The notes under the pieces were generated by a model. The model ran no database searches. It was given only the letters and a program-made list of their open reading frames with translations, and had not been told where the DNA came from. Of a stretch of DNA of 64,000 bases, positions 3,483 through 53,945 are shown one piece after another. Position 1 is the first letter of the stretch, and each line of letters starts with the position of its first letter. A program made the translations under genes and the position numbers. Origin of the DNA: an uncultured Solirubrobacterales bacterium (GTDB taxonomy: Bacteria > Actinomycetota > Thermoleophilia > Solirubrobacterales > Solirubrobacteraceae). The stretch is taken from contig CAWEXS010000001.1 of NCBI GenBank assembly GCA_963813115.1, positions 477,845-541,844 on the forward strand, given 5' to 3'.

Positions 3483-3555
3483 GCCGCCATCGTCTAGGGG
3501 ACTAGGACGCCGCCCTCTCACGGCGGTAACACGGGTTCGAATCCCGTTGGCGGTA
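3483..3555 (+). tRNA. tRNA-Glu(CTC)
   Basis: GCCGCCATCGTCTAGGGGACTAGGACGCCGCCCT-CTC-ACGGCGGTAACACGGGTTCGAATCCCGTTGGCGGTA; canonical Glu D-arm. Confidence 0.95.
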
Positions 3556-47970: not shown

Positions 47971-48855
47971 ATGGATACGCCTAGCCGTTCGCTAGGCTTC
48001 GCCACAGTGGAGCTGGACCGCCAGAACATCGAAAAACGAGACTTTCCGATCGGCCGCCGCGGCTACGACCCGTCCGCCGTGGATGCGCATCTCAGGGCCC
48101 TCGCCAGAGATGTCGACGAGCTTCAGCGCGCCGCCGCCGGTCGCGGTGGCGAGTCGCTCGGGTCCGCCGCCGGAACCCAGGTTCAGAGCATCCTCGAGGC
48201 CGCCGAGACCACCGCGGCCGAGATCGAGCGCCGTGCGGCCGAGAACGCCCAGCAGGTTCGTGACGAAGCCGCTCGCGATGCCGAGCAGACCCGCGCCGAG
48301 GCCGTGGCCCGCGCCCGCGCTCACGTCGAGGCCGTCTCCCAGGCAACCGCCGTACTGCTCCAGCAGGTCGAGTCGATGGACGAGGAGGTCGGCGGGCTCG
48401 TGCAGAGCCTGCGCTCCGGTGCCGGTCGCCTGGCCTCCGATCTGGCCTCCGTCGAGACCAACATGGGCGCGCTCTACGACGCCGCCTCGGGCCAGGCCAC
48501 GACTGCCGCCAGAGCCGAGAACGGGCCGGGTGCAGCCTGGTCCGGGGCTCCTCCCGTGCAGCACGAGCCGCCCGCGCCTGCACCCAGCGTGCCGCCCGCA
48601 TTCGAGCCGCGCGCGAGTCCGCCCCCCGCTCCTGTCCAGACCTTCGCGCCTGTTGCGGCACGGGCTCCGAGCGAGCCCCAGGCCCCCCTTCCCGGGGCGG
48701 GCGGCGGCGATCTCGACGGGGCGCGTCTGATCGCGCTCAACATGGCGCTCAACGGCGAGTCTAGGGTCCAGACCGACCGCTACCTCGCCGAGAACTTCGA
48801 ATTGACCGACCGCACAAAGCTGCTGGACGAGGTGTACGCGGCCATCGAGGGCTAG
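47971..48855 (+). CDS. DivIVA-domain coiled-coil protein with an extra C-terminal domain
   Basis: 'IEKRDFPIGRRGYDPSAVDAHL' DivIVA motif, coiled coil, Pro-rich linker. Confidence 0.85.
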   Translation: MDTPSRSLGFATVELDRQNIEKRDFPIGRRGYDPSAVDAHLRALARDVDELQRAAAGRGGESLGSAAGTQVQSILEAAETTAAEIERRAAENAQQVRDEAARDAEQTRAEAVARARAHVEAVSQATAVLLQQVESMDEEVGGLVQSLRSGAGRLASDLASVETNMGALYDAASGQATTAARAENGPGAAWSGAPPVQHEPPAPAPSVPPAFEPRASPPPAPVQTFAPVAARAPSEPQAPLPGAGGGDLDGARLIALNMALNGESRVQTDRYLAENFELTDRTKLLDEVYAAIEG

Positions 48856-48910
48856 GCCTCTCGAACGGAAACAGCGCGTGGCAGCATTGCCCGTCGCGCT
48901 ATATGCTGAG

Positions 48911-49019
48911 CGGGTCTAGGGCGGCAATAAAAGAGCCCGGAAGAGGCCTGCTGTCGCTCCAGCTCGAGAAGATCGGGTGGGGGACACGAGTCGCTAACGG
49001 GTGGACCACCCTGGTACGT
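48911..49019 (+). ncRNA. Putative structured leader of the atypical tRNA (T-box-like elements)
   Basis: TATGCT -10-like hexamer at 48902; stem CCCGG(48936)/TCGGG(48973) with an inner helix; GGGTGGACCACC at 48999. Confidence 0.3.
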
Positions 49020-49115
49020 GCGCCTGTAGCTCAGTGGTCAACGGCAACCGCGAGGGTGCCAAAGAGCGGCGGTCTTTCAAACCGCAGGTCGAGGGTTCGA
49101 TTCCCTTCAGGCGCA
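49020..49115 (+). tRNA. Atypical 96-nt tRNA, anticodon TTC (nominally Glu), with a hairpin inserted in the D-loop
   Basis: Acceptor GCGCCTG/CAGGCGC, D-stem GCTC/GAGC, anticodon stem GCGGT/ACCGC, loop CT-TTC-AA, T-arm GAGGG-TTCGATT-CCCTT; 31-nt D-loop. Confidence 0.85.
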
Positions 49116-49177
49116 TTGGCGGAAGGCTGCAAGGATGGGGCCTGGATGCCAGCCGCAGTACAGCAGCCGGAACCCCT

Positions 49178-49393
49178 CTACCGCATGTAGATCGCCGGAC
49201 GGTACTTTGGCTCGGGAATCGGCTTGTTCGCTTCTCGTGCTGCGGCGAGCCATGCTTCCTTGGCGCGCTCGACTTCAGCCAGAGCCTGTTCGGGGCTAGA
49301 GCCGAACGCCGAACAGGCCTCCAGATCCGGGATGTCGGCGATATAGCTTGAGTCCTCGTCGCTGTAGAAGACGTTGATGTGATAATCGCTCAT
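49178..49393 (-). CDS. hicB: HicB-family antitoxin
   Basis: 'YIADIPDLEACSAFGSSPEQALAEVERAKEAWL...PIPEP'. Confidence 0.9.
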   Translation of the reverse strand: MSDYHINVFYSDEDSSYIADIPDLEACSAFGSSPEQALAEVERAKEAWLAAAREANKPIPEPKYRPAIYMR

Positions 49394-49395
49394 CG

Positions 49396-49647
49396 CTAGT
49401 TCTCCAGCTTTAGATCGTAGCGCTCGACCAGCCTCAGAAACTGGCGGATCTGGTAGGGCTTGGCCTGGCCGCGCACGGCTTGAAAGTTGATCAGCTCCGG
49501 AACTGCGGGGTGAGCAAAGAGATGGTGGCTCCCGCTGACCCGGCGCAGTTCGAAGCCGAAACCTTCGATGAGCTTCTGCATGTCGCTGAACCCGACATTG
49601 GTCAGCGCTCCATGCACCAGGCGCGCAAGCAGTTTTTCTCGATCCAT
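49396..49647 (-). CDS. hicA: HicA-family toxin
   Basis: 'GFELRRVSGSHHLFAHP...AKPYQIRQ'. Confidence 0.9.
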   Translation of the reverse strand: MDREKLLARLVHGALTNVGFSDMQKLIEGFGFELRRVSGSHHLFAHPAVPELINFQAVRGQAKPYQIRQFLRLVERYDLKLEN

Positions 49648-49731
49648 CGAGAGACCGTAGGTCTCGCTTGGGACGCAACTCTTGTATCGCCCGCCCCGGC
49701 GTCAATGGATAGCGCTGCGCCCAGGTGATAG

Positions 49732-49745
49732 CGAACATATGTTCG
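49732..49745. promoter_or_regulatory. LexA (SOS/Cheo) box
   Basis: CGAAC-ATAT-GTTCG, a perfect Gram-positive/actinobacterial SOS consensus. Confidence 0.8.
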
Positions 49746-49956
49746 TTTTCCGTCCATCGGCCGGTCTACCCTCAAGCTCTCGGTTCGGAAGGTCGCCCGA
49801 GCCTGGCTCTCGGGGGAGGAGGGGATAGTGCGACCGTAGTAGGAGGATTTGAGATGCAGCATCCCCTTATGCGTGTACACGAAGGTGGATTGGCGGCAGT
49901 CGATGCGGGCGAACTCGCGATGCGCGAGGCCTCCCGTGAGGTGGTGGAGGGCCTGG

Positions 49957-50409
49957 CTAGGGCTTGTCTGACGGAGGGCTTGACGAATGCTGATCGCGCG
50001 CTGCTGGTGCGGACTCAGCGGTGCTTTGCTCGGATTGGAGGGATCGCTGCTCGAGATCTCCTTGGAGGGTCACCAGGTCTGGGTCCTTCCCATCCCCGGA
50101 GAGGCGACTGAGCAGATCCTTGAGCGTGTCTTTCACGTCGTCAACGGTGCTCTCAATGCGGTCCAGCTGGTTTTTCGTGTGGGCCTCTGGAAGGAAGAAC
50201 TCACTTATGTCAAAGCCGAACTCGGCCCCGATGCGTTCTAGGGCGTCCTCATGAGGCATGTTTTCGGCGGCTTCCCATCGTTGCCACTGCCGCGTTTCCG
50301 CTCCGACGCGCTCGGCCGCCTCGTCCTGGGTGAGTGGTTTTCCGCCTCGGCCATTCTCTATTCGTGCTCGCTGGAGTCGTGCTGCCATCCGCTCCTTTGC
50401 CTTAGCCAT
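49957..50409 (-). CDS. XRE/Cro-CI-family HTH repressor-like protein
   Basis: 'RLQRARIE...LTQDEAAERVGAETRQWQRWEAAENMP...LERIGAEFG'; ATG50409 inferred as start. Confidence 0.85.
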   Translation of the reverse strand: MAKAKERMAARLQRARIENGRGGKPLTQDEAAERVGAETRQWQRWEAAENMPHEDALERIGAEFGFDISEFFLPEAHTKNQLDRIESTVDDVKDTLKDLLSRLSGDGKDPDLVTLQGDLEQRSLQSEQSTAESAPAARDQHSSSPPSDKP

Positions 50410-50644
50410 ATGCGACTTCACGCTAGGTCCCATCGTCCTAGCCCACAACGTCACCTTTTGCCGTATATTTGCCAGAAAATGACGCATAGATCGACAGACG
50501 CTTGTCTGCGTTGACAAGGATCGAGCCTGGCAAGCGCGACGCACGCTCGCCAGGCTGGCTAAATGGACTGGAAGTCGCCTGCGGAGATGCTGCCGGGCGG
50601 ACTTACAAAGCAGGATCAGTCAATCGAATGAGTCTTTGACACAC

Positions 50645-50766: not shown

Positions 50767-50868
50767 AAGGTCGCCTCCAGCTTCCAGCGGAGCTTGCAGA
50801 GATCGACCGTCTCATGTTGTGGACATCGGCGACGCAGAATAGCTGGACTTCAACACGGGACTGCGACA

Positions 50869-50882
50869 CGAACATCCGTTCG
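50869..50882. promoter_or_regulatory. LexA (SOS) box of uvrA
   Basis: CGAAC-ATCC-GTTCG, 21 bp upstream of the uvrA ATG. Confidence 0.88.
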
Positions 50883-50903
50883 CTCTCCTATTATGATCGG
50901 TAC

Positions 50904-53941
<3,038 letters not shown>

Positions 53942-53945
<4 letters not shown>

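Follow-up and report, generated by a model that had tools for sequence, protein, structure and literature searches.

A tRNA gene with a hairpin in its D-loop

The window, by which we mean throughout the whole 64,000-nt stretch of DNA that was analysed (contig C1, 477845-541844, of a four-contig, 3.16-Mb genome with 68% GC), holds a tRNA gene whose elements are located in Table 1 and read, in order, GCGCCTG TA GCTC AGTGGTCAAC[GGCAACC GCGA GGGTGCC]AAA GAGC G GCGGT CTTTCAA ACCGC AGGTC GAGGG TTCGATT CCCTT CAGGCGC A. The Rfam tRNA model RF00005 spans the gene end to end (model positions 1-71, E 2.6e-14), at a score well above the gathering score of 29 bits, and its alignment places a 25-nt insertion in the D-loop. 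The anticodon U34-U35-C36 (TTC) lies at 49076-49078 and the discriminator A73 at 49115; CCA is absent from the gene, and TTGG stands directly 3' of it. A scan for promoters and terminators around the gene returned nothing useful.

The gene has a 7-bp acceptor stem, a 5-bp anticodon stem with a 7-nt loop, a 5-bp T stem with a TTCRA loop, and the full set of nucleotides for the tertiary fold (U8, A14, G15/C48, G18G19 and the T-loop), with G18G19 kept for the elbow contact with the T-loop. Its D-loop is 31 nt long (49033-49063), against 8-11 nt in ordinary tRNAs (PMC7609411), and contains a 7-bp hairpin between G18G19U20 and A21, capped in the window copy by the GNRA tetraloop GCGA (49050-49053). 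This hairpin, absent from an earlier note on the same DNA, is the most unusual feature of the gene and the reason for its 96-nt length. ARAGORN made no call for the gene, either on the window or on the excised gene, because of the 31-nt D-loop with its 7-bp hairpin. In other parts of the genome ARAGORN made four over-long calls (Val, 97 nt; Met, 87 nt; His, 91 nt; Leu-gag), which had no Rfam support and were rejected as false positives.

The earlier note had described a CT-TTC-AA loop, a GCTC/GAGC D-stem and an AGGTC variable loop, all of which are borne out in the sequence, and had correctly observed that one C-to-T change would give a UUU loop. The contrast that it drew with the tRNA-Glu(CUC) at 3483-3555 also stands: the D-arm of that tRNA is TCGTCTAGGGGACTAGGAC and its variable loop, TAAC, is 4 nt long, and the D-stem of the 96-nt tRNA lacks the Glu-type U11-A24 and U13-G22 pairs.

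Table 1. Locations of the tRNA gene, its structural elements, neighbouring genes and related copies. Plain positions refer to the window; positions with a prefix refer to other genomes or contigs.
Feature	Location	Strand	Details
tRNA gene, anticodon UUC	49020-49115	+	96 nt; RF00005 66.4 bits; model R1 110.4 bits
Acceptor stem, 5' strand	49020-49026	+	GCGCCTG; partner CAGGCGC at 49108-49114
D-stem, 5' strand	49029-49032	+	GCTC (C11, C13); partner GAGC at 49064-49067 (G22, G24)
D-loop, 5' part	49033-49042	+	AGTGGTCAAC; A14, G15, U16, G18, G19, U20, then CAAC into the hairpin
Extra D-loop hairpin	49043-49060	+	GGCAACC-GCGA-GGGTGCC; 7-bp stem, one A.G mismatch in the window copy
D-loop, 3' part	49061-49063	+	AAA, last base A21; invariant across copies
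Anticodon arm	49069-49085	+	GCGGT / CTTTCAA / ACCGC; loop at 49074-49080; C32, U33, A37, A38
Variable loop	49086-49090	+	AGGTC, 5 nt; nucleotide 47 present; C48 able to pair with G15
T arm	49091-49107	+	GAGGG / TTCGATT / CCCTT
Canonical tRNA-Glu(CUC)	3483-3555	+	ARAGORN and Rfam; sole Glu-type body in the genome
Gene island 3' of the tRNA	49178-50544	-	HicB-like antitoxin, HicA toxin, XRE-type HTH
HicB-like antitoxin	within 49178-50544	-	Pfam, 23 bits
HicA toxin	49396-49647	-	Pfam HicA, 32.5 bits
XRE-type HTH protein	49957-50544	-	Pfam HTH_31, 24 bits
uvrA	50814-53945		HicA/HicB-XRE island sits between the tRNA and uvrA
Variant-anticodon copies	L082:6298-6391 (DATBYJ010000132.1); L186:3503-3600, L185:2151-2248(-), L187:2235-2329 (IMG/VR)		
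Variant-anticodon copies	L189 (G340:C14:753-853); L191 (G314:C7:158909-159009)		
3'-half repeats, examples	G223:C1:2395906, 2404348, 2407791; G417:C1:2163377, 2171465		partial matches in G011 and G009

Conservation and covariation

BLAST found the full 96-nt gene in 23 of 24 same-genus genomes at 82-92% identity, and the 5' part of the D-loop is invariant among all copies found in this way, a search that did not impose it. A scan for the exact D-loop motif, covering one genome per prokaryotic species, yielded more than 120 species genomes among the matches listed, nearly all of them labelled Solirubrobacterales, Solirubrobacteraceae or Conexibacteraceae, with a few labelled at class level only. 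The earlier note had proposed a search among relatives for a TTT anticodon; what they carry is CTTTCAA, identical in all 20 same-genus copies examined and present in 77 of the 80 species copies parsed. The 31-nt D-loop likewise occurs in 77 of these 80.

Among 27 distinct sequences, the five-helix structure was paired in 99.5% of cells and reached a covariation of 0.351, compared to 0.149 in shuffles, with 0 of 500 shuffles attaining 0.351. The hairpin helix (helix 3) was paired in 97.9% of cells, with four of its seven pairs changed on both sides and up to six pair types at one pair, and its caps across copies (UUCG, UACG, GCGA, GCAA, UAAC and UCAC) are stable tetraloops. The acceptor stem was paired in 100% of cells, including a double change from C-G to U-A at pair 6, and three of the five T-stem pairs change on both sides across relatives; the D-stem is invariant in this set. 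Single-sequence folding of the D-arm did no better than shuffles, and the evidence for the hairpin is its covariation, not its folding energy. The 96-nt gene is real and selected as an RNA.

Model R1, run over 401 genomes of the order, identified the 96-nt type (at least 99 bits) in 62 of them, belonging to four genera from two families of Solirubrobacterales. Every one of the 22 genomes sampled from the window's genus (family f1) was a carrier, as were all those sampled from genera g68 and g76 and one of the two from g88 (family f4); the type was found in no other genus. Its presence in two families suggests horizontal spread.

The only UUC tRNA in carrier genomes

ARAGORN gave 46 credible tRNAs for the four-contig genome and Rfam gave 48 matches, and neither found another UUC tRNA. 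The tRNA-Glu(CUC) at 3483-3555 reads GAG, not GAA, and every Glu-type body within the window's genus is CUC; normal tRNA-Lys(UUU) and tRNA-Lys(CUU) are both present in the window genome. A scan of carriers for UUC tRNAs with C32 recovered the hairpin type only, and the corresponding pattern with U32 appeared in 0 of 32 carriers versus five of six non-carrier controls, making the hairpin tRNA the only UUC tRNA in the window genome and in the 32 other carriers tested.

The UUC tRNAs of non-carriers are of Glu type, with U11-A24, U13-G22 and a 4-nt variable loop, and their holders include other f1 genera as well as G157, a genome nested among the f4 carriers. Because the canonical gene is held by non-carriers, even by one nested among carriers, the hairpin gene has replaced canonical tRNA-Glu(UUC) in four genera of two families. 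In a comparison of synteny between hairpin and canonical loci, uvrB and the DivIVA-like gene were detectable only in the six closest genomes.

GAA means glutamate

GAA accounts for 13.7% of Glu codons and 8.5 per 1000 codons in total, with no sign of avoidance. A codon test on UvrB and UvrA orthologues had too few loci with these genes, and 1493 orthologous ORF pairs from genomes carrying the hairpin tRNA were used instead. Across these pairs, GAA aligned with glutamate in 70% of cases (GAA 42, GAG 28), with aspartate in 7%, alanine in 6% and glutamine in 4%; arginine made up 2.6% of its partners and lysine fell outside the top seven. GAG showed the same substitution profile, and AAG aligned with lysine in 63% and arginine in 13%. 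Because GAA exchanges as GAG does, it means Glu, not Lys. At catalytic-Glu codons we found GAG in 33 of 33 cases (Walker B 26 of 26, DExD/H 7 of 7), an absence of GAA that is not significant given the D-E-P context, where 10.1% are GAA (P about 0.06).

An Arg-like body with a Glu anticodon loop

Once the hairpin is taken out, the window copy most resembles the tRNA-Arg(ACG) of its own genome, at 78%. In a structure-registered comparison of the 42 positions outside the anticodon arm, the majority form of the scaffold agreed with tRNA-Arg(CCG) of the order at 40, compared to a between-family background with a mean of 25, a 99th percentile of 35 and a maximum of 38, and tRNA-Arg was the top match for nearly all scaffold variants. 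The copy in the window has diverged further (36 of 42 positions shared with Gly and 35 each with Lys and Arg, the Lys body being that of tRNA-Lys(UUU), with A73 also present), which explains why the earlier note took the scaffold to be Lys-like; it was right that the body is not of Glu type, but the family lies closest to tRNA-Arg. We infer that a tRNA-Arg of the order was the ancestor or the template of the body, with the qualification that the copy in the window shows a weak affinity to Arg and that convergence can also make tRNAs similar.

The tRNA-Arg (CCG/ACG) of Solirubrobacterales shares with the hairpin scaffold its acceptor stem (GCGCCCG/CGGGCGC), D-stem (GCUC/GAGC), D-loop start (AGUGG) and a near-identical T arm, with A73 matching as well in the CCG form. 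The two differ in that the hairpin tRNA has the anticodon UUC rather than CCG or ACG, has U20 and the hairpin, and decodes Glu. Compared directly, the D-loops are AGUGG-A-UA in tRNA-Arg and AGUGG-U-CAAC[hairpin]AA-A in the hairpin tRNA. The main ArgRS determinants are A20 in the D-loop and C35 (PMC9976931), and the hairpin tRNA has neither, with U20 followed by the hairpin at the A20 site and U35 at the place of C35, so that by published identity rules its arginine identity would be lost.

[quoted passage not shown] The hairpin tRNA has the four strong anticodon-loop determinants plus G1-C72, the only one that it has outside that loop; it is without U2-A71, U11-A24 and U13-G22:A46, and nucleotide 47 is present. 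The Glu D-helix features are seen in the genome's tRNA-Glu(CUC) and in relatives' tRNA-Glu(UUC), and tRNA-Glu and tRNA-Gln of the order both keep a Glu-type D-arm. The genome has one gene of the GluRS/GlnRS family, the GluRS gene at C1:623301-624641, and no GlnRS, and for this reason its GluRS is presumably non-discriminating. Co-transfer or duplication of GluRS was rejected, since the gene is single and its phylogeny agrees with taxonomy, with carriers in two separate groups and non-carriers nested in the f4 group. The evolution of GAA, the status of the hairpin tRNA as the sole UUC tRNA and the single GluRS all speak indirectly for charging with glutamate by GluRS, in which case recognition would be driven by the anticodon, with the hairpin possibly helping.

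A second, short GluRS-like gene was present in 9 of 19 sampled non-carriers and 0 of 11 carriers, a correlation that is not clean (examples are G039:C1:707689-708594, G057:C1:417696-418544 and G122:C1:2449417-2450310). It is about 40% identical, over the catalytic domain only, and looks GluQRS/YadB-like.

Phage copies, variant anticodons and repeats

Eight viral contigs in IMG/VR carry the scaffold. Two of them (L196, IMGVR_UViG_3300050821_006825, and L197, IMGVR_UViG_3300050821_004749) contain arrays of 14 and 29 tRNA genes where the hairpin tRNA(UUC) stands beside Glu(CUC) and canonical Glu(UUC) is absent. Other anticodons, namely UUU, UGU, UGC, CCU and ACC, occur rarely on the hairpin scaffold, and the acceptor stem is GCGCCCG or GCGCCTG across its variants. 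Copies with CCU and UGC lie in viral contigs, the ACC copy has an IS1595-family transposase directly downstream of it, the UUU copy is a second gene in a same-genus genome, and the UGU copy belongs to another family; the UUU and UGU copies have longer, different D-loop hairpins and are 101 nt in total. With its G3-C70 pair, the UGC copy is incompatible with the rules of AlaRS, and the anticodon alone therefore does not explain the charging of every family member. The variant-anticodon copies are either non-functional or charged by rules other than the known ones.

Many carriers have a further copy of the tRNA's 3' half 1-12 kb downstream. These repeats look like att sites, which would make the gene an integration hot spot; in the window's own genome no 3'-half repeat was found. 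The HicA/HicB-XRE island next to the gene in the window is probably the remnant of an integrated element.

Interpretation and alternatives

We consider it probable that the 96-nt gene encodes a working tRNA for GAA that is charged with glutamate, has a body derived from tRNA-Arg, retains its hairpin, has replaced the canonical tRNA-Glu(UUC) and was spread by mobile elements. The single GluRS would charge it mainly via U34, U35, C36 and A37, and changes at the A20 site and C35 would have stripped the Arg-family body of its arginine identity. In the mature tRNA the hairpin most likely persists as a fifth arm that juts out behind the elbow, and the L-shape should be preserved, with U8-A14, G15-C48, G18G19 and the T-loop intact. 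Phages or integrative elements would be a likely route of spread, because phage tRNA arrays carry the gene and the gene is an integration site. The result is an undescribed tRNA architecture together with an identity switch, and miscoding is not supported. An anticodon-shifted tRNA, as the earlier note had it, thus holds as an identity switch, but its 'miscoding or alternative charging' is not supported, the alignment partners of GAA being those of a Glu codon.

That the hairpin is retained in the mature tRNA is likely, and the opposite view, in which it is a new, very small bacterial tRNA intron at 20/21 that is excised and its flanking halves rejoined into a 74-nt tRNA, with the stem serving as a processing signal, seems to us quite unlikely. 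ARAGORN and the Rfam model do treat the hairpin as an insertion, archaeal tRNA introns occur at non-canonical sites that include D-loop positions, and covariation would also be expected of a structure-specific processing signal. The genome, however, has no match to the tRNA splicing endonuclease (PF01974), for which four archaeal controls were positive, and the 7 bp of the hairpin stem are continuous, with neither a bulge-helix-bulge motif nor 3-nt bulges. The known tRNA introns of bacteria are group I ribozymes of hundreds of nt that sit in the anticodon loop and splice themselves out; the insertion here, a simple hairpin of about 22 nt in the D-loop, is not of that type and cannot self-splice, and Rfam found no intron match over 48800-49350. 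The whole 96-nt sequence is present in at least 14 soil metatranscriptome runs, and contigs from six of them contain it without differences at depths of up to 19.5, with no hairpin-less joint among them. These contigs carry genomic leaders and trailers and no CCA ends; they could represent precursors or carried-over DNA, and the mature form cannot be read from them. The 31-nt length, fixed in 77 of 80 copies, and the stable tetraloop caps fit an architectural element.

Charging with lysine or arginine, or ambiguous charging, under which GAA would be miscoded or recoded, is very unlikely. It draws on a body without the U11-A24, the U13-G22:A46 and the missing nucleotide 47 that are major determinants for E. 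coli GluRS, on the lack of GAA at the 33 catalytic-Glu codons, and on scaffold copies with other anticodons, which could hint at anticodon-blind charging. Yet GAA exchanges with GAG, Asp, Ala and Gln in GAG-like proportions and is used without avoidance, the catalytic-site result is not significant after correction for context, and the tRNA has neither the A20 and C35 that ArgRS depends on nor the UUU anticodon read by LysRS. Still more improbable is a tRNA-like RNA without a role in translation, maintained for integration or as a regulator, GAA being decoded by other means: the hot spot with its att-like 3'-half repeats and the accessory island adjoining the gene in the window would suit it, but the genome has no other tRNA to read GAA, the anticodon loop is invariant, the tertiary-contact nucleotides and stems are under purifying selection, phage tRNA arrays include the hairpin gene in place of Glu(UUC), and an att site needs no intact 5' half or anticodon. 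The earlier note had also offered a base-call error or an RNA-edited anticodon. In a metagenome assembly, with a single base change between UUC and UUU, the true anticodon might conceivably be UUU, or the insertion an artefact, and we give this practically no credence. The same anticodon loop and 31-nt D-loop recur in more than 100 species assembled independently in many studies, in viral contigs and in contigs from RNA runs, and the genome already has its normal tRNA-Lys genes; conservation refutes an error in base calling or assembly, and editing is not needed, as the encoded UUC already fits the usage of GAA.

A further possibility, which we regard as speculative and on balance unlikely, is that a portable, Arg-derived tRNA chassis has been evolving in phages or integrative elements of Solirubrobacterales, with its anticodon swapped freely (UUC, UUU, UGU, UGC, CCU, ACC) and its fifth arm having a function of its own, and that hosts capturing the UUC version could discard a vulnerable tRNA-Glu(UUC). 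On that account, the arm could shield the tRNA from the tRNA-cleaving nucleases of defence systems or toxins, or could be a recognition handle for synthetases or modification enzymes. If true, it would be the first natural structural add-on to a tRNA that spreads horizontally and displaces a core translation gene.

Comparison with known systems

The hairpin tRNA has the same U34, U35, C36, A37 and G1-C72 as canonical bacterial tRNA-Glu(UUC), the same place beside tRNA-Glu(CUC) in phage arrays and probably the same job as sole decoder of GAA. It differs from the canonical tRNA in having C11-G24 instead of U11-A24, C13-G22 instead of U13-G22:A46, C2-G71 instead of U2-A71, nucleotide 47, and a 31-nt D-loop with a hairpin where the normal loop has 8-11 nt; given the low sequence similarity, it is not a member of that family by descent. 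Membership in tRNA-Lys was also rejected: LysRS reads the anticodon UUU or CUU, with U35 as its main determinant, plus A73, and the anticodon here is UUC save in rare copies, with GAA partners that are not Lys-like.

The pattern fits alloacceptor remolding, in which anticodon shifts are known from metazoan mitochondria (PMC4783518) and eukaryotic nuclear genes (PMC3923123), with a yeast mitochondrial tRNA-Thr derived from tRNA-His as another example (PMC3113583). Unlike those cases, the hairpin tRNA occurs in free-living bacteria and phages, has a new structural arm, leaves the meaning of the codon unchanged and extends over two families; in the literature searched we found no description of alloacceptor remolding in free-living bacteria. 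Class II tRNAs and allo-tRNAs (PMC7609411) resemble it in having an extra helical arm on a conserved L-shaped core, and allo-tRNAs also in presenting several anticodons on one scaffold. Its arm, in contrast, arises from the D-loop (20/21) and not from the variable region (44-48), SerRS/LeuRS logic does not apply, its variable loop is 5 nt long, and its acceptor/T branch is 7/5 rather than 8/4 or 9/3. Phage tRNA variants that escape tRNA-cleaving defences, as in PARIS and T5 tRNA-Lys (PMC11464382) and retron evasion (PMC11555353), are likewise phage-borne duplicates of isoacceptors whose changes need not affect decoding. They carry point substitutions in or near the anticodon loop, with no structural insertion or replacement of a host gene known among them, and any link of the hairpin tRNA to phage defence is speculation. 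Across the full-text literature searched, which includes the reviews PMC7609411 and PMC9976931 and leaves subscription journals outside its scope, we found no description of a tRNA with a D-loop hairpin; what appears to be new is the combination of a probable fifth arm with a switch of identity in a tRNA that displaced a core gene.

[quoted passage not shown] It challenges the generality of the E. coli GluRS identity rules, as this tRNA seems to manage without the augmented D helix. The gene escapes standard tRNA finders, so that the genomes of its carriers seem to be without tRNA-Glu(UUC), affecting quality scores of metagenome-assembled genomes and inferences from codon usage. The hairpin site may be a natural, ribosome-compatible insertion point for tRNA engineering, and through the phage link, structural tRNA variants are possibly part of phage-host conflicts.

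Other tRNAs in the genome and its relatives

Several further tRNA-like sequences lie in the window genome outside the window. ARAGORN called a tRNA-Phe(GAA)-like sequence at C2:377275-377348 (-) with a 6-bp anticodon stem and a weak D-arm, which is not in the Rfam results; a normal tRNA-Phe is located at C2:386560-386632. A second, divergent tRNA-Asp(GUC) at C2:1442907-1442980 (+) starts with U1, scores 55.2 bits in Rfam and encodes its CCA end, a feature not shared by the other tRNAs checked. Three tRNA matches in Rfam, weak or partial and without an ARAGORN call, lie at C2:815418-815468 (32.5 bits), C4:205735-205807 (29.5 bits) and C4:105470-105558 (25.1 bits). In a same-genus genome, the tRNA-Glu(CUC) at G009:C8:36439-36512 (L031) has an 8-nt anticodon loop, CTTCTCAC, with one extra T and an anticodon given by ARAGORN as 'tctc', which is either a sequencing indel or a frameshift-type tRNA.
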